From the sequence record OK428535.1: a stretch of DNA of 64,000 nucleotides, one strand, 5' to 3'. This stretch comes from Escherichia phage vB_EcoM_Lh1B. Both the position numbers and the translations under genes were made by a program. Each line of letters starts with the position of its first letter. Within the stretch, counting starts at the first letter, position 1. Positions 7,025-63,179 of the stretch are shown here, in pieces. The notes under the pieces were generated by a model that was not told the DNA's origin, did no database searches, and saw nothing but the letters and a program-made list of their open reading frames with translations.

Positions 7025-7117
7025 ATGCAATACGACAACGACGACTGGCCGAAAGGCTTAATGCCCATTTTACTGGGATTAATGGTCCTCACGATGCTCG
7101 TGCGTTATATGACGTGA
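7025..7117 (+). CDS. tiny single-TM peptide (30 aa)
   Basis: ATG preceded by GGAGGG; MQYDNDDWPKGLMPILLGLMVLTMLVRYMT has one hydrophobic helix; below the ORF-track length cut-off. Confidence 0.3.
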   Translation: MQYDNDDWPKGLMPILLGLMVLTMLVRYMT

Positions 7118-7124
7118 GGTCAGT

Positions 7125-15034: not shown

Positions 15035-15045
15035 TACGCTTCCTT

Positions 15046-15090
15046 AAAAAGTAGAACGAGCGGACTATGTCCATAAACATAGTCCGGCTC
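15046..15090 (-). terminator. stem-loop / partial terminator between fibre gene and peptide genes
   Basis: Inverted repeat CGGACTATG...CATAGTCCG with T-run on the minus strand, directly upstream of the RBS of the first peptide gene. Confidence 0.4.
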
Positions 15091-15099
15091 GTAAACAAG

Positions 15100-16349: not shown

Positions 16350-19300
16350 TTAGGTACGGAACATAAGATTGACCTGGATAATATCAGGCTGTTGACGTCC
16401 TCTCTCGTTCACCCAATCGTGTGCAATCGTTAACGTAAGATCATCGCCTTCCCACGACACGATCGGTGGTGGGAATAAACCCTGAGCGCCCGTGGTAACA
16501 ACCGGGATTGCACCTGCCACATTCGTAAACGTATAGCTACGACTGTTCAGAACAACCGGTGTGCCGTGGGTCTCTCCCGGCTGTGGTAAGATTTGAATCT
16601 TACTATCCGAAAGATCGGTGGTGATTGGTAGACCCCCAGCGTCCGTGAAAAGCCAAGAGCAAATATNCTGGTTNGCTGTTTCGAGCGCTGAAGAACTCTT
16701 CACAGCCGCGAAAGTAAAGGTGCACGGCACGCCTGCTGGCAGAGAGTGCTGTTTGTGGTGCACGGTATGTGGTGACGGCAATAACACTTCTGGATTTTCG
16801 TCAATGTTAACATCCGTACCTTCCGCCTCGACGTTGTAGAAAAAGCCATCCACCGCCTCCCATGGGGCAACGTGGACATTAAAGGTCGTTTCTACTCCCG
16901 GTGTACCTGGGACGACGAATTTACTTTGCACCACCACCATCATAGTTCTTGAGGTCGGTGAGAAAGCGGGCGTTGGAATACCTACCCACTCCATTCCCAA
17001 CGATGCCGCTTCACCGTTCTCATCAGCCGTTACCGTCGCGATTGTTGTAGGATGTTTCCAAAACGCCCCCGACTTGTTTGCCTGAGTAAACGCCGGCAAA
17101 GTTTTCAAGCCTTCGAAACGTTTGGACACCATCGCTTTACCGCGACGCTGTGCGTCAGATACGGTATAAAGCAACTGACTATCCAGATAGCCTTTCGTAG
17201 CATCGATCGACAAAGGACCCATCGCTTCTTTACGCAATGGTGCCAGTCTGCCCGTTGCTGCATCCCTTCCCACTTCCACATCATGCTTATTCTCAACCGC
17301 CGCATGTTCCAACAGTTGTTTCACCGCCCCCAATCGCTTAGCATGTTCGACGTTAGTCTCGACGACTCGTGACGAGCCCGTTTTAACATACCCGATATAG
17401 AGTTCCGTTTCAGTGTCTGGATGTTGAATCACGTCCATTACGTACTTCGGTGTACCATTTTCTACCTTGGCGTGCAGGTAGAATGTCCGGTTCTGATGGT
17501 TTGTTGGAAATGCTGCGCTGAGGTCAATATACCACGTAGGCAGCTTATAAGTGCTCGAGCCGAAACGCAGGTCAACTTCCTCAGTCACATATACCAGCCA
17601 ACCTTCGGCTGTTTCCACNCCAGCAATGACGACCGATTCAGTCGGGCCACTAAAATTAGGAGCCGCGACAAAATCACTCGACGACATTGCGATACCACCA
17701 CAATAGACGTAGTCGAGAGATGAGTTGTGTAGCATCACCTGATCACGATGAGCCAGATAAGCTGGGCTGACTGGAGTGTGTGATGGTGCCATGCGTCCAA
17801 TGCCGTGTGGAGCAGAAGAACGCGTCCAGGTACCATTAGACAGCGTAAGACCAACACCGTAGTTAAGCGCACCCAAGTCGCCAATTTGGCGCAAGGTTAA
17901 CGTGTGTGGAAGATACAACCCGAACTGCGTACCATCTACTGACACCAGTGTAGGTTGTCCCGGCCGGCGTGTTTTTCCTCCCGTTATCTCACCCAACGTA
18001 GCATAGTTCAAGCCATAGTCGAGGTTGTTATAGAAGTCAAACAATGCCAATATCGCTGCCGGGAATGTTACCTGCCCGTTACTGATTGTTGGTTTCAGTG
18101 TAAAGTAGTAGATATCCAACAAGTTAACATTGTTCACAGTACGCGTACATGCTACTTGTGCTAACGTGAGCGGTGTGGCCGTACCAATGCCGATGAACCA
18201 AATGGAGAACAGTGCCTTTCCGGCGTTATTTGCGGCAAGGATAAATTCCGAAGCATAACCATTCGCAGCGCCAGCCGGTGCGCCGTCGATAATCATCTGC
18301 TTCATCTTATCCCATTCGGCTTGTGACAGCGTCAACCGATCGGCATGAATCGTGAAAGTGCCAGAAACGTTGTGGTAAGGGAATGTTTCTGGTCCTGTGC
18401 AATACCAGCCGTTTAACTCTGTACCAGGCGACGCCGGTGTAACAATGTGGCACATCTGCGACAGATTCTCGTACGTGGTAGAATCTACTACACGACGATT
18501 GTTAGTTGGTCCATACCCCGCTTTACCTGAATAAGTGGTGTTCGGATCAAACTCAACTTCAATTGCCAAACGGGTACGCGGCTGTGACAACCAGATAAGT
18601 CTGGAATTCGCTCCCAGAGTCAGCGGATACGCCATGCCCAGCTCGTAGATAGAACCACGACCTTGGTTTAACATTACCGCACTAAAACTTCTGGCAGTGA
18701 AGTTGTAGTCGCACGACAGGTACTCGTACCAACTCACACCGTCATCTAACGTTGTAATCGTGACATAAGGCATTAGGTCGCGATCGCCTGCATGTCCTTG
18801 CGAAACGATATACTTGTCTTGCGATGTTGCAAAGGTTCGGTTATTAGCTTGACCTTCGCCCCATTTCCGGCTCGGAATCCCAATCTCAGCGCCACCGTTA
18901 TAACGAACCGTGGTAAGATCGGCCACAATAGGGAATCGATCAGCACCTTCCAGCGTTATCGTCATTGAACTACAATCAACAACAAAGCTTGACACCCATT
19001 GTTTAAAGTTAATAGTTTGCCCTGTAGTAGAAGCAAACCAAACCGTTGGAGTTAAACCAACACGAAAGTTCAGCCCATCCACACCAATCGCGTGATTACA
19101 TTCCGGACCATGGACAAATTTCGTCGCACTATTCCACTTCGCCGATGCGTCTGCGTAGATTTGTGTTACTGGCGCTACCAACACATCTGTATCAGAACGN
19201 TTCTGACCCTGACGCAAGTAGATATTATCTCCCGACGTTAACATCCCACCTGTTAACACATCCGCCACAAACGTGTTGCTACCACCCAGATTAAGTTCGT

Positions 19301-21546: not shown

Positions 21547-21592
21547 AATCTGTAATAAAACGGAGACCGCCCTCCCAATAACGGAAGGGCGG
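21547..21592 (-). terminator. intra-operon terminator/attenuator
   Basis: Hairpin CCGCCCTCC...GGAAGGGCGG followed on the minus strand by TTTTATT, between the 1376-aa and 1727-aa fibre genes. Confidence 0.4.
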
Positions 21593-21628
21593 TTTACCTA
21601 CGGACTACCCGCCCGTAGGCAGTCCGTC

Positions 21629-30815: not shown

Positions 30816-30823
30816 AAGGTAAA

Positions 30824-30846
30824 CCCTACTCCCAATGGGAGNAGGG
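30824..30846. terminator. bidirectional rho-independent terminator
   Basis: CCCTACTCCC-aat-GGGAGnAGGG hairpin with A-rich and T-rich flanks. Confidence 0.55.
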
Positions 30847-30877
30847 NACCTATATNTTTTTTTTGCCNGNNGGCCGA

Positions 30878-32732: not shown

Positions 32733-32751
32733 ACAGATAGATGTCATCTTA
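32733..32751 (+). promoter_or_regulatory. partial copy of the recurring intergenic motif (candidate phage promoter element)
   Basis: ACAGATAGATGTCATCTTA resembles the CTCAGA-YAGATATTATCTA motif seen upstream of other plus-strand genes. Confidence 0.25.
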
Positions 32752-34085: not shown

Positions 34086-34095
34086 TCTCGTCATC

Positions 34096-34126
34096 GGGGG
34101 TCTTGTACCCCCTTCTTATTTTTTAA
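34096..34126 (+). terminator. rho-independent terminator
   Basis: GGGGGT-cttg-TACCCCC hairpin followed by TTCTTATTTTTT. Confidence 0.5.
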
Positions 34127-34145
34127 CCGTAAAGAGTATTTAACC

Positions 34146-35584: not shown

Positions 35585-35589
35585 TTTAT

Positions 35590-35630
35590 CTCCAGTAACC
35601 ACGAGGGTTACTGGAGTCCTCTTATTTTTT
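35590..35630 (+). terminator. rho-independent terminator
   Basis: CTCCAGTAACC-acgag-GGTTACTGGAG hairpin followed by a T-run. Confidence 0.6.
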
Positions 35631-35663
35631 ACACTTAACTCAAATTAATTTGAGGTGTGGTAT

Positions 35664-36251: not shown

Positions 36252-36255
36252 AATA

Positions 36256-36277
36256 TCTCAGATATATATTACCTAGG
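36256..36277 (+). promoter_or_regulatory. recurring intergenic motif (candidate phage promoter element)
   Basis: TCTCAGATATATATTACCTAGG upstream of the secreted-protein gene cluster. Confidence 0.3.
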
Positions 36278-36302
36278 TGAGAGTTAAGAGATTAACTCAA
36301 CT

Positions 36303-36331
36303 GGCTACCCTCGGGTAGCCTATTCTTTTTT
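36303..36331 (+). terminator. rho-independent terminator
   Basis: GGCTACC-ctcg-GGTAGCC hairpin followed by TATTCTTTTTT. Confidence 0.5.
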
Positions 36332-36356
36332 AAACCAATCGACTATAGAGTAAAAC

Positions 36357-36758
36357 ATGACTATCAAGAAGTTCTTACAAGCAGTAGTAGTTCTGGCCGC
36401 ATGTGGTATTGCAGCAACTTATGCTTTCGATAAGCCAGACGTGACTGAATACACATCAGCTGATTCGGATTATGGCATTGCACCGAATGAAAAACCGGAA
36501 CTGATGCGTGAGGTCGAACAGTTACAAATCTACAGACTGACGGACGGTAAGAACTGCACAGGGCTGGTTATCGCTGATAAGAAATTGAAAATGTATCAGC
36601 GGTTAATCGACATATCGTGCAATCAACCAAAAGTCACCTCGGTCAGTGTATCGCCACTGGAATTACCGAATTTGGTTGCTGTGAGCTTTTATCACAACGA
36701 TGTGCTCGTCGGTCGCATCACCCTCAATCGTGGAGATATCAAAAATGAAATGCAATAA
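36357..36758 (+). CDS. putative lipoprotein / secreted protein
   Basis: Signal peptide MTIKKFLQAVVVLAACG with lipobox-like LAAC. Confidence 0.55.
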   Translation: MTIKKFLQAVVVLAACGIAATYAFDKPDVTEYTSADSDYGIAPNEKPELMREVEQLQIYRLTDGKNCTGLVIADKKLKMYQRLIDISCNQPKVTSVSVSPLELPNLVAVSFYHNDVLVGRITLNRGDIKNEMQ

Positions 36759-38066: not shown

Positions 38067-38076
38067 CCGAAAAGTT

Positions 38077-38100
38077 TTCAGACAGATGTTATAACGTGAG
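38077..38100 (+). promoter_or_regulatory. recurring intergenic motif (candidate promoter element)
   Basis: TTCAGACAGATGTTATAACGTGAG; variant of the CTCAGA-YAGATATTATCTA motif. Confidence 0.25.
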
Positions 38101-38120
38101 ATGACGACCCATCTCACTTT

Positions 38121-38166
38121 GGCCCTGCGGTGATTTCCCCAACACTTAGCCGCAGGGTCCTTTTTA
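38121..38166 (+). terminator. stem-loop / terminator
   Basis: GGCCCTGCGG ... CCGCAGGGTCC inverted repeat with 19-nt loop followed by TTTTT. Confidence 0.45.
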
Positions 38167-38696: not shown

Positions 38697-38704
38697 ATAC
38701 GAGA

Positions 38705-38733
38705 GGTAGCCCGTAGGCTACCTTCTTTTTTTG
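38705..38733 (+). terminator. rho-independent terminator
   Basis: GGTAGCC-cgta-GGCTACC hairpin followed by TTCTTTTTTT. Confidence 0.55.
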
Positions 38734-38750
38734 TTGAAGAAGGATTAAAC

Positions 38751-39377: not shown

Positions 39378-39387
39378 CTCTCCTCTC

Positions 39388-39420
39388 TGGAACCCTTCGG
39401 GGTTCCATTTNTTCTTTTTT
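39388..39420 (+). terminator. rho-independent terminator
   Basis: TGGAACCC-ttcg-GGGTTCCA hairpin followed by a T-run. Confidence 0.55.
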
Positions 39421-39473
39421 ACGCATGACCTTTTGGATATGAACNNCTAATNCTTTCTCATTANAAGGCAAAC

Positions 39474-41984
39474 ATGCACAAGGTCGAACGTATCATTTTN
39501 AAAGNNTTTACCGGCATGGGGTTACATGAAANNNAAANNTTTGATTTCACCCTTAANTCAACCGTTACCANCATCCTCGGTGGCAACGGCTGCGGTAAAA
39601 CAAGCCTCCTGTCTGTTTTTCTCCCCTTAGCTCCAGCAAAATCAGAATTCCGTGAAGGTGGTTCCTACACTAACTACGCGTTAGTTGGGGACGACCGTCT
39701 TAAGTTTGAAGTCCTGCGTCGTGGCTCTTCTCTGTCTTGTAGTATTTTCAATATCACTAAAGGTGTCTCCATCGTAGACTCGGTAAACGCCAAAGTTTAC
39801 AACTCCATGGTGGAGCAATTAACCGGAATCACCAAAGAAATCAAAGAGTTAATTAATGGTGAGACCTTATTAACTGACGCCACTACCGAAGTTCGTCGTA
39901 AATGGTTTACGTTAATGTCAGAATCTGATCTGACGTACGTTGTTGGTTGCTATCGACGTTTGCGTAAACTCGCTTCCAGTTTAAGTGGGGCCATTGAGCA
40001 CACCGGCCGTAAAATCGGTGAGGCAAAAATGCGCGTGGTGGACGATGAAGAAGATCGTGCACGTTTAGAAGTTCGTTTGAAAGAACTCGATGCTGAGCTT
40101 CAGGAATTAAACCGCACAATTGAAGCGAGACCCGGTTTAGATAACGCCGTTTCGGTTGATAGTATCCGGAAACGCATTGCTTCGTTGCAACCGGCTGTAA
40201 AACTCATTATGGAACGTTATGGCGTTCTGCCTTCTGACGAACTGATTAACGAGTTTCAAAGTCGTGTGGTTGCCTGGCGTGAGCAAGCTGCCTCTGCTGA
40301 AACTGAATGCAACATGTACAATAAAGAGTTGTCACAGCTACTGGATGAGGAGTCGCGTCAAGCGTATCTGATGCGCAACCATACCGGTCTAAAACAAACA
40401 ATCGACAGCTTAAAACAGGAACTGGCAACGTTCCAACAGAACTGGATGTTCCCGGCTCTGTTTGAAGGTACCCGCATTGATGTGGATAGCATTCAGAACG
40501 CGTTAAACGATGCCTGTAACTGGAATTTACCGTTGTCCATGCATCTGGACCAGTTAAAGACAACAGATCGCCTGGGAGCGTTAGAGAAGCGTTTACAGGG
40601 TATGGATTTAACCTCTGCGGGTCTATCTGAAAAGCTGCAACGTTGTGAGAATGTGCTACACGGTTTATACCACGACCGTCAACACTTCTTAGAAACTGCA
40701 GAAGTTGATTGTCCACAGTGTAACCACCGTTTCCGTCCTGGGATTCGTAAGTCGTTACCTGAAATTGAAAAGGCCATCAACGATAATGAAGGTTGGAAGA
40801 AGCAGCTGAAAGACGAAATGGATAGTCTTTTGCGTGACCGCAAAGAGATTGAAGAGGACGTCCGTAGCTTACGTACGATTCGCGAAATCGTCATGTCGTA
40901 TTCCAACCATCCTGTTGTCGGTTTGTTTTTCCGTAAACTGCAGGAGCTGGATATCTTCACCACGGCGCGGGATCGTTACGGTGCCATTGCACGTGCCTTT
41001 ACTGAAGAGCTAGATTCGGCCATGATGTATCTGCGTCAATCGGCGAAGCTTGCAACAGCGGAACGGGAATGGCAAGAGGCTGTTGCCGCAGTAGGTAACG
41101 TTGATGGTGCGCTGAGCCAGAAAATTGAACATATCCGTTCACAACTGGACGGGGCTAACCGTCGACTGATAGAATACCGCAGACAAGCCAATGAGCTGGA
41201 ACGCGAAACCACCCAACTGCAACAAACCAAAGAAGCAATCGAACGTTTCCAAAAAGGCTACGAACATCTGGTATCGGAAATGAACATCTCCGTTAACAAC
41301 GTCGTGGTTCGTGAGTTGTTAAACCGACGCGAAGCGAAGCTCGATGCGTATACTTCAGCTCGTGAACGGTTTCGTCAAATGGAAGGGGCTATTGCACGTT
41401 TAGCGGAATTGGAAAAAGAGCAAGCTGAGTTGCTCAAAGAACACCATCNNGNCNGATTGATTATCAATGCCGTCTCACCCGAAAAAGGATTATTGCGTCG
41501 TTACTTTTATGCTGCGATTACCCGCATCATGGATTTAATGAATCGGTATATCGAAATGGTGTGGGCATATCCGATGCAGGTTATTCCATGCGATCTAACC
41601 GACGGGGATTTGGATTATACTTTCCCGGTGCGATTAAAAGACCATGAAGAACTGGTGCCGGATGTGAAGAAAGGTTCGAAGGCACAGCGTATTATCTTTA
41701 ACATGATGTTTCGTTTAACGGCGTATAAAGCGCTTGGTTTACAAAACTATCCTTTGTTNTTNGATNAANCCNCNNAAGGCATGGATGAANAACANAAAAA
41801 NCGCCTGGTCAACTTCTTTAAATCGTTGGNGTTGTTGGGGGAGTTTTCTNAANTGCTGGTCGTTTCGCATGAAGCGGAAGTTCATTCTAAACTTAACGAA
41901 GCCACCTACTGTGTCGTGGAGCCAGAAGGTGTAACGCTTCCACCGGTTTATAACGAAGGGGTAATAATCAAATATGCATCATAA
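39474..41984 (+). CDS. SbcC/Rad50-like recombination ATPase
   Basis: N-terminal Walker A ILGGNGCGKTSLL; very long central coiled coil with central CPQC zinc-hook-like motif; C-terminal Walker B/D-loop (..GMDE..) and LVVSHEAEV H-loop. Confidence 0.75.
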   Translation: MHKVERIIXKXFTGMGLHEXXXFDFTLXSTVTXILGGNGCGKTSLLSVFLPLAPAKSEFREGGSYTNYALVGDDRLKFEVLRRGSSLSCSIFNITKGVSIVDSVNAKVYNSMVEQLTGITKEIKELINGETLLTDATTEVRRKWFTLMSESDLTYVVGCYRRLRKLASSLSGAIEHTGRKIGEAKMRVVDDEEDRARLEVRLKELDAELQELNRTIEARPGLDNAVSVDSIRKRIASLQPAVKLIMERYGVLPSDELINEFQSRVVAWREQAASAETECNMYNKELSQLLDEESRQAYLMRNHTGLKQTIDSLKQELATFQQNWMFPALFEGTRIDVDSIQNALNDACNWNLPLSMHLDQLKTTDRLGALEKRLQGMDLTSAGLSEKLQRCENVLHGLYHDRQHFLETAEVDCPQCNHRFRPGIRKSLPEIEKAINDNEGWKKQLKDEMDSLLRDRKEIEEDVRSLRTIREIVMSYSNHPVVGLFFRKLQELDIFTTARDRYGAIARAFTEELDSAMMYLRQSAKLATAEREWQEAVAAVGNVDGALSQKIEHIRSQLDGANRRLIEYRRQANELERETTQLQQTKEAIERFQKGYEHLVSEMNISVNNVVVRELLNRREAKLDAYTSARERFRQMEGAIARLAELEKEQAELLKEHHXXXLIINAVSPEKGLLRRYFYAAITRIMDLMNRYIEMVWAYPMQVIPCDLTDGDLDYTFPVRLKDHEELVPDVKKGSKAQRIIFNMMFRLTAYKALGLQNYPLXXDXXXXGMDEXXKXRLVNFFKSLXLLGEFSXXLVVSHEAEVHSKLNEATYCVVEPEGVTLPPVYNEGVIIKYAS

Positions 41985-42165
41985 AGGTTGGCGCTTATGG
42001 GCTTGGTGGGGTTTCCAGTTCCTTCAGTTTGTTGTGATGGTACTGTACCTCTCCTTTTGTGCAACCGTAGTGGTTATCGCTGCGGTCGTTTATTTAGCTG
42101 CTGCTCTTAAAGAACGTCTGTTCGACACGCGTTGTGAGTGGCGAGATATGGGGGAACGGACATGA
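41974..42165 (+). CDS. small membrane protein (63 aa)
   Basis: One long hydrophobic segment FVVMVLYLSFCATVVVIAAVVYLAAAL; overlaps the SbcC-like stop. Confidence 0.4.
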   Translation: MHHKGWRLWAWWGFQFLQFVVMVLYLSFCATVVVIAAVVYLAAALKERLFDTRCEWRDMGERT

Positions 42166-42266
42166 TTGAAGGTATCGTATTAACCGGTATTGCACTGTGG
42201 TTGATTCGTGGTGCCTGGGGTTGGATTATCCGCACGAAAGGATGGGCGTTCCATGGCAACACGTAA
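42162..42266 (+). CDS. tiny TM peptide (34 aa)
   Basis: ATGA overlap with the upstream stop; MIEGIVLTGIALWLIRGAWGWIIRTKGWAFHGNT. Confidence 0.3.
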   Translation: MIEGIVLTGIALWLIRGAWGWIIRTKGWAFHGNT

Positions 42267-42444
42267 ACCACGTCGCTTAAAATCTTGGGNGGTTGTGGTA
42301 ATGCACACTGTAGTGTTGCTGGGTNTTTTCTTGTCTCGTGCCACNCCTGCCTTTTGGGGCTTAGTTGTTTTGGTGTTCTTAGAAGGGGTTTACTTCGGTA
42401 ATCTGTGGAGCAAGCCCCCCGNGTTTAAGGGACCCGGCTTATGA
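42253..42444 (+). CDS. small membrane protein (about 63 aa)
   Basis: ATG at 42253; two hydrophobic stretches (VVVMHTVVLLG, FWGLVVLVFLEGV); contains n. Confidence 0.35.
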   Translation: MATRKPRRLKSWXVVVMHTVVLLGXFLSRAXPAFWGLVVLVFLEGVYFGNLWSKPPXFKGPGL

Positions 42445-42572
42445 CAGTCGTGAATAGTGTCAACGCGGCGATGATTGNAACGGGTGCGTATGACGGTGCC
42501 ACATGGACAGATGTTGGTATCACGCTTATCATTTGCGCAATCGGAGCGTTTGTAGCAACATGGTTATTTTAG
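42441..42572 (+). CDS. tiny TM peptide (43 aa)
   Basis: ATGA overlap; C-terminal hydrophobic helix VGITLIICAIGAFVATWLF. Confidence 0.3.
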   Translation: MTVVNSVNAAMIXTGAYDGATWTDVGITLIICAIGAFVATWLF

Positions 42573-43018
42573 TGAAATGGGTTGGGTGTATCGTCTGTAG
42601 CCTGATACTAGGAGCGGGCGCATACGCCCTAGGCGCAATCCTTGCATTGACGCAAGGTTGGTTTTAACAGGAGGGTAATTACGAAGTGGGAGAAGTATCA
42701 TGTAACAGTGAAACAGTCTCTGATCCCGTGGTCGTGGGTTCAGGGGCGGCCGAGCCAACCCGGCGTATCGTTCTTTCGAGCGCGGGGATGGCTATAGGGT
42801 CTTCAAAGAACCTTCTAGCAGACATCGCGGAAGTCTGCGGGCCGGATGATTTTGCAGTTTCACGTACAGTCGGGGAAGACTGGCGTGGTAATCAGAAGCG
42901 CCATGAGCGAATGTGGCGACGGAAGGTTACCTCAGCATCGCGACGTTTTCAACGTCGTTGCTGATTATAGACACGGTTCCGATAGAGAACTGGTCTTCAC
43001 CTCTGGCGGTATACACCG

Positions 43019-43042
43019 CTTAAGTTTACCGGTAAACTTAAG
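43019..43042. promoter_or_regulatory. perfect 24-bp palindrome (candidate operator / protein-binding site)
   Basis: CTTAAGTTTACCGGTAAACTTAAG equals its own reverse complement; adjacent smaller inverted repeat GCGGT-ata-ACCGC at 43005-43018. Confidence 0.35.
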
Positions 43043-43110
43043 AAAACACAAACCCAATTCTTCGTTACTCNCTTTCATCGCAGGTGAAAGCTCACTTAGG
43101 AATTCAGCTC

Positions 43111-43599
43111 ATGGCCGAAATTGTCATTCTTTCCTCATCCTCAGATTTAACGGAAGCACAAAATAAACAGCTGTTGGGGCTGCATTATAAATTTCTGAAC
43201 CACCAACGTACCATACTCCATATCGAAAAAGGTGAGATTCCGAACCTCACTCTGGAGAAACTGTTGGCGGGGAACCGTGCTTGTGTTGCTCTGGAAGGGG
43301 GTACCCCTGTTGGTTACTGTTTGTATCGCGTAATCGCTGGGGTTCTGAAGATTCGTACGATGTTCGTGTCTGAAATGGCACGCCGTCGTAAAACGATGAC
43401 GCAGATTTTTGATGCGCTTGATGTGAATGNGCAGTTCACCAGTGCGCATGGGGGAATATACGCTTGCCAGGAAGCTGGTATTGCGTTCTTTACCNCTCGC
43501 GGTTTTGACAAGACCGTCTCTACAGACGGACAATGGCTTGAATTTAAGAAGCAGGTTCTTGCGGAAGCAGATGAACCTTTAAGGACTGCGGTAGCATAG
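43111..43599 (+). CDS. hypothetical protein
   Basis: ATG at 43111 with AGGAA RBS; 162 aa. Confidence 0.5.
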   Translation: MAEIVILSSSSDLTEAQNKQLLGLHYKFLNHQRTILHIEKGEIPNLTLEKLLAGNRACVALEGGTPVGYCLYRVIAGVLKIRTMFVSEMARRRKTMTQIFDALDVNXQFTSAHGGIYACQEAGIAFFTXRGFDKTVSTDGQWLEFKKQVLAEADEPLRTAVA

Positions 43600-43634
43600 T
43601 CCTGTTTTAGCACTCCTTACGATTATGCCTCACT

Positions 43635-43880
43635 ATGAGTGGGGTATTTTTTACGCGAGGAGTGCTATTTATGTTTCACCGTCCCGGGTTTTCAGCTTTA
43701 AACACCGATGTCTGTTGGGCTGAGTACGAGCGGGTGAAGGAGTTCTTACCCGTAAATCCTAAACACATCAACGTGGGTACTATCGGGCGTGTTGCGTTCG
43801 ATGACACTCCGCTGAGTACGTGTATTAAAGCTGCGCTTGGTACGCTGCCGGCGTCTATAGTGTTTGAGGAATTAAAATGA
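43635..43880 (+). CDS. hypothetical small protein
   Basis: 81-aa ORF ending with an ATGA overlap into the next gene. Confidence 0.4.
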   Translation: MSGVFFTRGVLFMFHRPGFSALNTDVCWAEYERVKEFLPVNPKHINVGTIGRVAFDDTPLSTCIKAALGTLPASIVFEELK

Positions 43881-44395
43881 CGGACATTCGTGTTGACATA
43901 TATGGGGAAATTCATACCACGGCCGATCGTAATCGTGTTGAATGGGCTATCATCGATAACCATCGGAAAAAACCATACGATTTTTTACTGTGTGAAGAAC
44001 TGGGGCCGTATGAACATCACACTGCAAAAGCGCAAGATAAGGCATTAAAGGAGAAGATGTACTCTATTGGACCCATGGGGCTGGAGTTGGCTAAGAAACT
44101 CGGCATCCCTGCTATTGGGATCGATGACTGGAGCGACGCAACCTACGCTAAAGATATCAAGGATAAAAAGGGAATGGCTGTAAACTTTAGCCGTTCTTTT
44201 TATATTNGTGAAACTAAAATGGTTGCAAAAATTAAAAAGTATATGGCAAAAGGGCGTTGTGCTGTTATGCTTGGCGACTCACACTTGCGCACCACGAAAA
44301 CTAAAGAGCTTGGTGATGCGTCCCTTATCTGGGAAACGTTTAAGGATAATCCTGAAGTGAAGTTTCACAGGAGCCCTAAACGCGAGATTGATTAA
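43877..44395 (+). CDS. hypothetical protein
   Basis: 172-aa ORF. Confidence 0.55.
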   Translation: MTDIRVDIYGEIHTTADRNRVEWAIIDNHRKKPYDFLLCEELGPYEHHTAKAQDKALKEKMYSIGPMGLELAKKLGIPAIGIDDWSDATYAKDIKDKKGMAVNFSRSFYIXETKMVAKIKKYMAKGRCAVMLGDSHLRTTKTKELGDASLIWETFKDNPEVKFHRSPKREID

Positions 44396-46948: not shown

Positions 46949-46953
46949 TTAAC

Positions 46954-46986
46954 GGTCAGACCTTCGGGTCTGACCNCCTTTTATTT
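46954..46986 (+). terminator. rho-independent terminator
   Basis: GGTCAGACC-ttcg-GGTCTGACC hairpin followed by CTTTTATTT. Confidence 0.6.
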
Positions 46987-46999
46987 AATTCTTGGGTGT

Positions 47000-53876: not shown

Positions 53877-53877
53877 C

Positions 53878-54618
53878 ATGTTGCGAGTCGTGAGTGAATC
53901 GCTCACGCTCCACACACAAAGTCTGATTAACTGTGTGGAGCAATACGGATGGATGTCGTGGATGGCAACGAACCGTGAGTTTGGTGCTGCGCCCATGGAA
54001 GATTACGACGTGTTGTACAAGTGGGGATTTGAAGCGGCTTGTGATGTTGTGGCAGAGCTGGTTACCGAAACAATTGCGCGTTACAACGCAAGATGTGATG
54101 AACCGATGCCTAAACAAGTCCCGCCGCAAATACCTCCGCTACCGACAATCGATCGTGAGCATTGTCGAATCTGGACAATGGAAGAGTTGTACGACGAACA
54201 CGTTAGAATGCTGAAACCGAACGAGCTAATAACCGGTGCGTTGAACTGGTTCTTACATCGTTTCTGGACAGAGTTGGTCGATGTGGCGGGTGACGAAGAT
54301 AATTGTTCTCAGGTTATTTGGTACGATCGAGCGATGTTTCATCGCAGTCTTAAAGATCGTAGTCTCTGCAACCTGTATATTGTTGACCCGTGTGAAGACA
54401 TTGTAAAGGTTGCAGAAGGTAACTCTTATTCCGACTTGGTGATGCCCGTGGTAGAAAAACCGATGGGTATTTTCCTGCAGGGNGACGNTTGGGTTTTAAC
54501 GGATGATATCTCGGGCTACCTGCTGGACCCGGATGACATTCACTCGGACGAACCTGATACCATCGAGTATTTTCACTTTACAGAACAGGCAGCACGCTTC
54601 TTGCATCTCTTAAAGTAA
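53878..54618 (+). CDS. hypothetical protein
   Basis: ATG at 53878; N-terminus MLRVVSESL is paralogous to that of CDS 55802-56209. Confidence 0.5.
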   Translation: MLRVVSESLTLHTQSLINCVEQYGWMSWMATNREFGAAPMEDYDVLYKWGFEAACDVVAELVTETIARYNARCDEPMPKQVPPQIPPLPTIDREHCRIWTMEELYDEHVRMLKPNELITGALNWFLHRFWTELVDVAGDEDNCSQVIWYDRAMFHRSLKDRSLCNLYIVDPCEDIVKVAEGNSYSDLVMPVVEKPMGIFLQXDXWVLTDDISGYLLDPDDIHSDEPDTIEYFHFTEQAARFLHLLK

Positions 54619-54619
54619 T

Positions 54620-54640
54620 CTGAGATAGATATTATCTACA
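54620..54640 (+). promoter_or_regulatory. recurring intergenic motif (candidate promoter element)
   Basis: CTGAGATAGATATTATCTACA, preceded by TTGCAT at 54601. Confidence 0.3.
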
Positions 54641-55801: not shown

Positions 55802-56209
55802 ATGTTAAAGGTGTATAGCGAGTCATTGATGGACTTGCAAGAGTATCTAAAGCATGTGGAAATTAACGGCAACCGTGGAATGATATACTCCATGGTTGTC
55901 GAGATTTTAATTAAAATCGTGCTTGTTTCATTCCACGTAGCAGAAAATGGCACTGCTGTACCAGGAGATGTTTATAAAGGCGTTATTAAGCATCTTAGCG
56001 AGCGCTACAGTTGTTTACGTGAACCGGATATCTTTAATGAGGTGCAGCGTGTTGTGTTGCTTATCCTCGACAACCGTGAAGACTTGGCGTACAAGCTTGC
56101 GCATGAATTGGCAGACACGTCACAGCACGGTGGACAACTGAAATATAACGTTGTGGATCTCGTAGCGTGCAGATACTGGTATACGCAGCCCGAGGTAAGT
56201 AACTTTTAA
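55802..56209 (+). CDS. hypothetical protein
   Basis: ATG at 55802 with GAGGGG RBS; N-terminus MLKVYSESL. Confidence 0.5.
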   Translation: MLKVYSESLMDLQEYLKHVEINGNRGMIYSMVVEILIKIVLVSFHVAENGTAVPGDVYKGVIKHLSERYSCLREPDIFNEVQRVVLLILDNREDLAYKLAHELADTSQHGGQLKYNVVDLVACRYWYTQPEVSNF

Positions 56210-57298: not shown

Positions 57299-57302
57299 TT
57301 AA

Positions 57303-57337
57303 ACGGACACTCTTCGGGGTGTCCGTAGTTTTATTTT
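57303..57337 (+). terminator. rho-independent terminator
   Basis: ACGGACAC ... GTGTCCGT hairpin followed by AGTTTTATTTT. Confidence 0.55.
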
Positions 57338-57366
57338 AATCGACCATTAATCTAAAGGAGTATTAA

Positions 57367-61004: not shown

Positions 61005-61009
61005 GCATG

Positions 61010-61034
61010 GGCGGGGCAACCCGCCTGTTTTTTC
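61010..61034 (+). terminator. rho-independent terminator
   Basis: GGCGGG-gcaa-CCCGCC hairpin (GNRA loop) followed by TGTTTTTT. Confidence 0.5.
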
Positions 61035-61049
61035 CCCTNAGGATTAGCG

Positions 61050-63157: not shown

Positions 63158-63179
63158 CTCAGACAGATATTATCTATCC
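63158..63179 (+). promoter_or_regulatory. recurring intergenic motif (candidate promoter element)
   Basis: CTCAGACAGATATTATCTATCC upstream of CDS 63210. Confidence 0.3.

Follow-up and report, generated by a model that had tools for sequence, protein, structure and literature searches.

We consider it likely that the region at 42686-43110 of the window (the whole 64,000-nt stretch analysed here) contains a real gene of the phrog_15402 family, followed by a structured intercistronic leader, and that the palindrome within this leader was perfected recently and is not conserved. The initial annotation had called the entire region doubtfully coding. That doubt is justified for the open reading frame (ORF) at 42846-43166, which is not a gene, and for the final ~146 nt, which are non-coding and structured, but not for 42686-42964; comparison with related phages identifies the latter ORF as a genuine protein-coding gene under purifying selection.

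The window derives from an SPN3US-like jumbo phage of the genus Seoulvirus, and the region is 96-99% identical to that of about 33 SPN3US-like jumbo phages (Seoulvirus), the SPFM phages being the closest relatives of the window (98.7% identical). Window coordinates correspond to SPN3US (NC_027402) coordinates minus 129426. The neighbouring genes are all on the + strand, in the order SMC-like gene, tiny hydrophobic ORFs, phrog_15402 gene, GNAT gene, small genes and macro-domain gene. The coding features and the signals that flank them are the following:

39474-41984, + strand: SMC/SbcC-like gene, 836 aa
42560..42667, + strand: small hydrophobic ORF, 35 aa, ending in ...ILALTQGWF and a stop, the last of the tiny membrane-like genes 3' of the SMC-like gene
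42640-42657, + strand: terminator-like hairpin, then TTGGTTTT, at the 3' end of ORF 42560..42667
42669..42675, + strand: Shine-Dalgarno (SD) sequence AGGAGGG, 10 nt 5' of the GTG start
42686..42964, + strand: protein-coding gene by comparative evidence, GTG start, 92 aa, phrog_15402 member
42846..43166, + strand: spurious shadow ORF, ATG start, 106 aa, frame +1
42913..43023, + strand: spurious shadow ORF, frame +2, counterpart of SPN3US_0190 / ACQ60_gp076 and SEGD1_195
43092..43113, + strand: conserved box (T/C)CACT(C/T)AGGAA, with SD AGGAA at 43098-43102 and ATG at 43111-43113
43111..43599, + strand: GNAT-type acetyltransferase gene, 162 aa, the downstream cistron
43625..43657, + strand: canonical intrinsic terminator, a stem then TATTTTTTAC, 3' of the acetyltransferase gene

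The 35-aa hydrophobic ORF is annotated in EC001, in Stratton (gp211) and in ChrisDB (gp212), and is without annotation in SPN3US. The product of the downstream cistron matches Pfam Acetyltransf_1 and Acetyltransf_7 (E=7e-4, slightly below the gathering score); it is annotated as an acetyltransferase in relatives, and its homologues have precomputed Pfam hits. GTG 43084, given as its start in the ORF list, was rejected, as the conserved start is ATG 43111. When the acetyltransferase protein was used as a query against IMG/VR, SPN3US itself was the sole return, and the diversity sampled therefore comes from phages in GenBank and contigs in Logan, ENA and JGI.

Around the GTG start of the 92-aa ORF, a GGAGG-type box and AGTGGGAGA are conserved in SPN3US, pEa29 and SPAsTU. 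The window was aligned with SPN3US and with two phages that are separate Seoulvirus species, pEa_SNUABM_29 (pEa29) of Erwinia and SPAsTU of Salmonella; in this alignment the amino acids encoded by the 3' third of the ORF are nearly invariant and the third codon positions alternate (CGA/CGT/CGG/AGA, CAG/CAA, TCG/TCA). Third-position synonymous changes predominate between Seoulvirus species, and for the C-terminal 40 codons compared with pEa29 we obtained pS=0.47 and pN=0.022, that is, a dN/dS of 0.03 (Nei-Gojobori); over the whole gene, Caitlin compared with pEa4 (Machinavirus) gives a dN/dS of 0.06. The N-terminal half is weakly constrained, as 16 non-synonymous against 6 synonymous polymorphisms, and 0 stops, are found there within the SPN3US species. 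The 22 genomes fetched (Seoulvirus, Machinavirus and Erskinevirus) and 4 metagenomic contigs all have the frame intact, and the succession of SMC-like gene, tiny ORFs, phrog_15402 gene and GNAT gene is invariable in all of them. Syntenic homologues with 35-40% identity were found by tblastn in Machinavirus and Erskinevirus phages of Erwinia; beyond the genus, conservation of the gene is seen at the protein level only, the related phages being recovered solely via tblastn. Several homologues carry hypothetical-protein annotations (Caitlin gp200, Machina gp201, Stratton gp212).

The 92-aa product matches the PHROG phrog_15402 HMM with E=1e-11 over residues 25-91, and the syntenic homologues match it with E-values of 3e-38 and 3e-41. 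A profile search of 5.8 billion proteins returned 19 clusters, each of 75-96 aa; four more small members, together with two repeat-protein false positives, came from an exhaustive HMM search among 1.8 billion representatives. The protein has a variable N-terminal half, a conserved E[DN]W[RQH]G motif and a basic C-terminal tail predicted to be helical; of its 12 Arg residues, 9 lie within the last 26 positions, along with 2 Lys. An AlphaFold2 model has a pLDDT of 56 overall, and moderate values (~70-77) only in the C-terminal helix, residues 68-91. Pfam and NCBIfam searches gave no significant match, and homology to known RNA-binding families was not found in Pfam, NCBIfam and PDB profile searches. 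The PDB profile search gave marginal N-terminal matches (the N-terminal helix of acyl carrier protein, ACP, and a Rossmann fold) at E-values of at least 0.03, which we judged to be compositional. The alignment to ACP by hhalign has a probability of 46% over 32 columns; an ACP-like fold was rejected, the resemblance being marginal, confined to the N-terminus, and held unproven because there is no conserved Ser at the position of the ACP serine. Our guess is that the C-terminal tail might bind nucleic acid.

The initial annotation had described two overlapping, out-of-frame ORFs of odd, Arg-rich composition, and both are present as described (92 aa with a GTG start and 106 aa with an ATG start). 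The offset of 160 nt between their starts places ORF 42846-43166 in frame +1. From its behaviour in related genomes this ORF is evidently an out-of-frame shadow and not a gene. Among close relatives, frame +1 carries 3 synonymous and 19 non-synonymous polymorphisms and 1 stop, the ORF is broken in SPAsTU, and it crosses the non-coding spacer into the acetyltransferase gene; in frame +2, six polymorphic sites among close relatives create stops. The abundance of CGN codons in the true frame keeps the alternative frames open and likewise accounts for the Arg-rich look of both ORFs. The frame +1 ORF has been wrongly annotated in EC001 (ACEC001_1897) and in pEa29 (pEa29_00243), and in 14 of the 22 close Seoulvirus records with a full, single-piece match nothing is annotated beneath the match. 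A genuine gene has mostly been missed by SPN3US-type annotations or replaced by shadow ORFs in the other two frames; SPN3US is the Seoulvirus reference genome, and the gene is missing there as well as in most close relatives. Proteomic and genetic screens that rely on these annotations are blind to the real product. In SPN3US coordinates the gene lies at 172111-172389, on the + strand. The predicted tryptic peptides of the 92-aa product include IVLSSAGMAIGSSK, NLLADIAEVCGPDDFAVSR and TVGEDWR.

The non-coding part of the flagged region is only the 146-nt spacer 42965-43110, for which folding predicts four hairpins (A, B, C and D). The elements of the spacer are:

42969..42996, + strand: predicted hairpin A, a bulged stem of 10-11 bp that begins 5 nt past the stop codon
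43006..43019, + strand: predicted hairpin B, GCGGT-ATAC-ACCGC, with a 4-nt loop
43019..43042, no strand assigned: perfect 24-bp palindrome (predicted hairpin C), CTTAAGTTTACCGGTAAACTTAAG, with arms of 12+12 nt, 100% complementary and without a spacer
43028..43068, + strand: conserved linear, unpaired tract, ACCGGTA.ACTTAAG + AAGA..ACA.AC.CAA..TTCTTCGT
43071..43091, + strand: predicted hairpin D, (G)CTTTCA-TCGCAGG-TGAAAG(C), ending ~6 nt 5' of the acetyltransferase SD AGGA

Hairpin A has a predicted energy of -11.4 kcal/mol (z=-3.5); in 10 Seoulvirus sequences, 99% of the cells are paired and 5 of the 10 pairs show double-sided changes. A hairpin resembling A, also in its loop, is found in Erskinevirus; A is absent from Machinavirus, in which the basic tail of the protein is kept. 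Hairpin B had been reported with a loop of ATA; the hairpin is there, at 43006-43019, but its loop is ATAC, of 4 nt. Its cells are paired in 98% of cases, with one compensatory pair (G-C to A-U, in pEa29 and SPAsTU), and Machinavirus has a positional analogue, CCGCA-N6-7-TGCGG. At the position of hairpin D, 12 lineages from three genera have a hairpin (-6.8 to -15.8 kcal/mol), with stem sequences that differ in 10 of them and a fixed spacing to the SD; Fisher's combined shuffle p is ~2e-12. Compensatory changes, or conservation of structure alone, indicate that hairpins A, B and D are kept by selection on RNA pairing. The unpaired tract behaves in the opposite way: its sequence is conserved throughout Seoulvirus and recognisable in Machinavirus and Erskinevirus (across genera, ...ACCGGTA.ACTTAAGA..ACA.AC.CAA..TTCTTCGT), whereas the flanking stems change sequence. 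No second copy of any tract 9-mer, with up to one mismatch, occurs in the other intergenic gaps of the 64-kb window. The tract at 43028-43068 might be a site recognised in single-stranded RNA or, alternatively, an internal promoter, and the conserved right half of the palindrome may have a DNA- or RNA-binding function. A covariance-model scan, which had been proposed as a check of the structured-RNA reading, found no Rfam 15 family at E<=10 over 41500-44000 on both strands.

The perfect 24-bp palindrome lies exactly where it had been placed, at 43019-43042, and the ~70 bp given as its distance from the next gene agrees with the 68 nt that separate it from ATG 43111. It is the longest perfect palindrome of the 64-kb window, the runners-up being of 16 bp, and a half-length of 12 was reached in 0 of 200 shuffles; the palindrome is thus beyond chance. 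Even with a tolerance of 3 mismatches the window contains no second site, and further copies of the palindrome or of its right half do not occur there above chance. The initial annotation had suggested looking for it elsewhere in the genome, and across the phage genomes there is a single site in each, the two places returned per record being both strands of one palindrome. The perfect form is present in only 3 of 34 records (the window, EC001 and JN03). The other 31 have a majority imperfect allele, CTAAGCTTTACCGGTAAACTTAAG, with the left arm in a 1-nt register shift, and in pEa29 and SPAsTU the right half alone is present, with neither a left half nor a hairpin. RNA folding gives -8.4 kcal/mol for the perfect allele and -0.8 kcal/mol, a weak bulged hairpin, for the majority allele. 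The palindrome was rejected as a conserved RNA hairpin, given this low stability of the majority allele and the 77.8% of cells that are paired in hairpin C; in 5 of its 9 pairs the only variation is that pairing is lost, and two pairs exist in only 3 of 10 sequences. What is conserved is the core ACCGGT and the right arm.

Since the outgroup pEa29 has CTAAGC, like the majority allele, the imperfect form is ancestral, and we reconstruct this state as CTAAGC-TTTACCGGTAAA-CTTAAG. The change to the perfect allele affects 5 nt of the left arm only (TAAGCT to TTAAGT), through the gain of a T and the loss of a C, equivalent to 3 substitutions, after which the left arm is exactly complementary to the conserved right arm. 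The SPFM phages, closest to the window, have the imperfect allele, and the perfect allele is found on two distinct flanking haplotypes. By this allele distribution, the perfect palindrome is evidently a derived, recent minority allele of a quasi-palindrome rather than an element conserved for its function. Quasi-palindromes are known to be corrected through template switching in E. coli and in phage T4, and we infer that the perfect allele arose in this way, by an intramolecular switch; recombination between alleles could equally explain its distribution over haplotypes. The predicted accessibility of the acetyltransferase SD is equal for both palindrome alleles. Anti-SD sequestration by the right arm or by AATTCTT was rejected, as the alleles are equal and only SPN3US-type phages conserve the pairing.

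The palindrome was also rejected as an intrinsic terminator: it is not listed in the terminator scan, its stem is AT-rich, with 2 of 10 pairs being G-C, and there is no T-run on either strand, the stem being followed by AAAACAC on the + strand and by CGGTGTA on the - strand. Genuine terminators of the window have GC-rich stems, then T6-8; they lie in the gaps 2539-2628, 30816-30862, 34086-34145, 35585-35654, 38697-38750, 39378-39473, 46949-46999, 57299-57366 and 61005-61049, in addition to the site at 43625-43657. An early-promoter-like motif, CAGAYAGATATTATCTA, recurs 5' of genes (6 matches against 0.11 expected) and is absent from the spacer, which speaks against an early promoter there. A scan for sigma-70 promoters found no excess over chance and none in the spacer; its relevance is doubtful, as the phage has its own RNA polymerases. 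Middle and late promoters of phiKZ-type phages show little consensus, and their bioinformatic prediction is not possible (PMC7598289). Transcript or promoter mapping for SPN3US was not found in a search of the literature.

The main rival to a gene with a structured leader holds that 43028-43068, comprising the palindrome's right half and the CA-rich tract, is an internal middle or late promoter for the phage multisubunit RNA polymerase, which would drive the acetyltransferase gene, hairpin D being the 5' end of that transcript. Nothing in the spacer except this tract keeps its linear sequence across three genera, no gap between the terminator-like sites 39378-39473 and 43625-43657 is longer than the spacer, and the poor consensus of phiKZ-type middle and late promoters (PMC7598289) would be compatible with such a role. 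However, the tract 9-mers do not recur in other intergenic gaps of the window and the window allele is without a TATG-type late motif, and we regard this promoter as unlikely. A much smaller probability attaches to the palindrome being the operator of a dimeric DNA-binding protein, as the initial annotation had proposed, which would then regulate the downstream gene. A perfect 12+12 bp inverted repeat that is statistically unusual, stands 68 nt 5' of a gene start and has a conserved core and right arm does resemble an operator, but the 1-nt register shift in 31 of the 34 genomes would misplace the outer half-site, the left half is missing in pEa29 and SPAsTU, there is a single copy per genome, and perfect and imperfect alleles segregate among near-identical phages. 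With its half-sites out of register and one of them not conserved, the palindrome is not supported as a dimeric operator; no HTH-type gene was recognised among the scanned neighbours.

Two further proposals involve the Arg-rich tail, and we think each of them very improbable. The C-terminal helix could be an RNA-binding motif for hairpins A and B, of the lambda N/boxB kind or autoregulatory, since its last 26 residues, with 9 Arg and 2 Lys, are predicted to be helical (pLDDT ~70-77) and conserved, covarying hairpins start 5 nt past the stop codon; the case is, however, purely positional and compositional, the loops are not boxB-like, Machinavirus keeps the basic tail without hairpin A, and the protein has no known RNA-binding homology. 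By extension, the 92-aa protein and the downstream leader might be a cis-encoded pair, a long shot in our view, in which the Arg-rich helix would bind A/B or the CA-rich tract and control the acetyltransferase cistron; control would act via read-through, processing or translation and would be tuned by the palindrome polymorphism, in a nucleus-forming jumbo phage using its own RNA polymerases. Least probable is that the entire 42686-43110 is a non-coding structured RNA or sRNA locus with a fortuitous ORF, the other suggestion of the initial annotation. Many annotators left the region blank, its composition is unusual (56% GC against ~47% nearby) and a 9-nt inverted repeat is found at the 3' end of ORF 42686-42964. 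Nevertheless, the substitution pattern (dN/dS 0.03) effectively refutes this reading, and against it stand also the phrog_15402 match (E=1e-11), the intact frame and conserved start context in 22 genomes, conservation across genera at the protein level only, and the lack of an Rfam match at E<=10.

We therefore favour the real phrog_15402 gene and its structured leader, for which a working model can be outlined. The 146-nt spacer would be an intercistronic leader within a same-strand string of genes that ends in a terminator. By analogy with other systems, hairpins A and B may protect the 3' end of the upstream message or direct its processing, and hairpin D may be a 5' stem that stabilises or insulates the acetyltransferase cistron for translation, with the conserved, unpaired CA-rich tract lying between hairpins A/B and D; a template switch in the left arm would have perfected the quasi-palindrome in a few genomes. 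The result amounts to an annotation correction and a modest structured leader, and its value is mainly practical. With its covarying hairpins and conserved unpaired tract, the spacer provides a compact group of candidate elements for regulation at the RNA level, and little is known of transcription signals in these phages. The palindrome, for its part, is a caution: a perfect repeat, however striking, can have arisen recently as a by-product of mutation and need not be a binding site.

Relative to known systems, the gene fits the phrog_15402 family of SPN3US-like Erwinia and Salmonella jumbo phages in its HMM match, its size (72-96 aa in the family), the E[DN]W[RQH]G motif with the basic tail, and its site between small hydrophobic ORFs and a GNAT gene; the Seoulvirus members differ in having a GTG start, a longer variable N-terminus and a C-terminal Cys, and are missing from most Seoulvirus annotations. 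Hairpins A, B and D resemble the intercistronic stem-loops of phage and bacterial polycistronic mRNAs in that they have no U-tract, keep their pairing by compensatory change, and stand directly after a stop codon or directly before an SD sequence. Classical RNase III sites have longer stems than the 5-11 bp seen here. The palindrome is like the phage's own intrinsic terminators in being an intergenic hairpin, and these differ from it in their GC-rich stems and T6-8. It shares with quasi-palindrome correction a clustered, multi-base change that touches a single arm of an imperfect inverted repeat and by which complementarity becomes exact; the difference is that here the event is deduced from comparative sequence, and recombination could have spread the allele.

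Stable hairpins that lack a U-tract are found in other intercistronic gaps of the window, so that stems of this type are a general feature of the genome and are not peculiar to the flagged spacer, the non-coding stretch between the gene for the 92-aa protein (42686-42964) and the GNAT acetyltransferase gene. The canonical intrinsic terminators form a highly uniform set: each has a GC-rich stem and then a run of T6-8, in many cases with AC after it. This set suggests that classical terminators are recognised by the phage polymerases.

Stable hairpins without a U-tract, and canonical intrinsic terminators, in the window
7062-7124, hairpin without U-tract
38067-38129, hairpin without U-tract
53877-53932, hairpin without U-tract
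15035-15099, minus strand, hairpin without U-tract
21579-21628, minus strand, hairpin without U-tract
2539-2628, gap with terminator
30816-30862, gap with terminator
34086-34145, gap with terminator
35585-35654, gap with terminator
36252-36360, gap with terminator
38697-38750, gap with terminator
39378-39473, gap with terminator
46949-46999, gap with terminator
57299-57366, gap with terminator
61005-61049, gap with terminator
43625-43657, terminator

Upstream of the 92-aa gene, the 3'-end of a short hydrophobic ORF forms a terminator-like hairpin directly before the Shine-Dalgarno (SD) sequence of that gene. The ORF is conserved in Seoulvirus and Erskinevirus, is missing from the SPN3US annotation, and its final 30 nt are nearly invariant in nucleotide sequence.

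42560-42667, plus strand, hydrophobic ORF of 35 aa, C-terminus ...ILALTQGWF
42640-42657, plus strand, terminator-like hairpin CCTTGC-ATTGAC-GCAAGG, then TTGGTTTT

Downstream, in the stretch 43098-43145, base pairing is predicted between the acetyltransferase SD (AGGAA) and UUCUUUCCUC, which lies within codons 6-9 of the acetyltransferase gene itself. For Seoulvirus and Erskinevirus the predicted probability that the SD is unpaired amounts to 0.13-0.23, as against about 0.5 for Machinavirus; this pairing may represent an SD-sequestering structure.

Elsewhere in the window, the motif CAGAYAGATATTATCTA has six matches with up to three mismatches (0.11 expected), mostly in intergenic gaps that precede plus-strand genes, and is a candidate for the early (virion RNA polymerase) promoter consensus of the phage. 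Two AT-rich perfect palindromes of 16 bp were also found, one of them (CTCAAATTAATTTGAG) immediately upstream of an ORF that starts at 35655.

32734-32750, plus strand, CAGAYAGATATTATCTA site
36259-36275, plus strand, CAGAYAGATATTATCTA site
54622-54638, plus strand, CAGAYAGATATTATCTA site
63160-63176, plus strand, CAGAYAGATATTATCTA site
19215-19231, further CAGAYAGATATTATCTA site
35639-35654, palindrome CTCAAATTAATTTGAG
55903-55918, palindrome GATTTTAATTAAAATC

In 11 records of the closely related SPFM phages (SPFM1, 5, 6, 7, 8, 9, 10, 12, 14, 15 and 20; GenBank LR535901, LR535903-08, LR535911-13 and LR535917), BLAST returned the region as 9-15 separate pieces per record. What these records annotate as protein P0004 corresponds to the true 92-aa protein, but with the order of its 20-aa (60-nt) blocks reversed; the deposited sequences look as if their 60-base lines had been turned round, probably a database artefact.

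Within the SPN3US species, 15 of the 22 variable sites of the 92-aa gene fall in its first third (42695-42783), where the polymorphism is mainly non-synonymous and shows no A-specific bias that would point to a diversity-generating retroelement. The N-terminal segment of the Machinavirus members of the 92-aa protein family (for example, IEDRVRKIVVIGLGM) shows a marginal resemblance to helix I of acyl carrier protein (ACP), with an E-value of about 0.03 against PDB profiles and an hhalign probability of 46%. The gene adjoins a GNAT acyltransferase gene, but conservation does not extend to the ACP serine.
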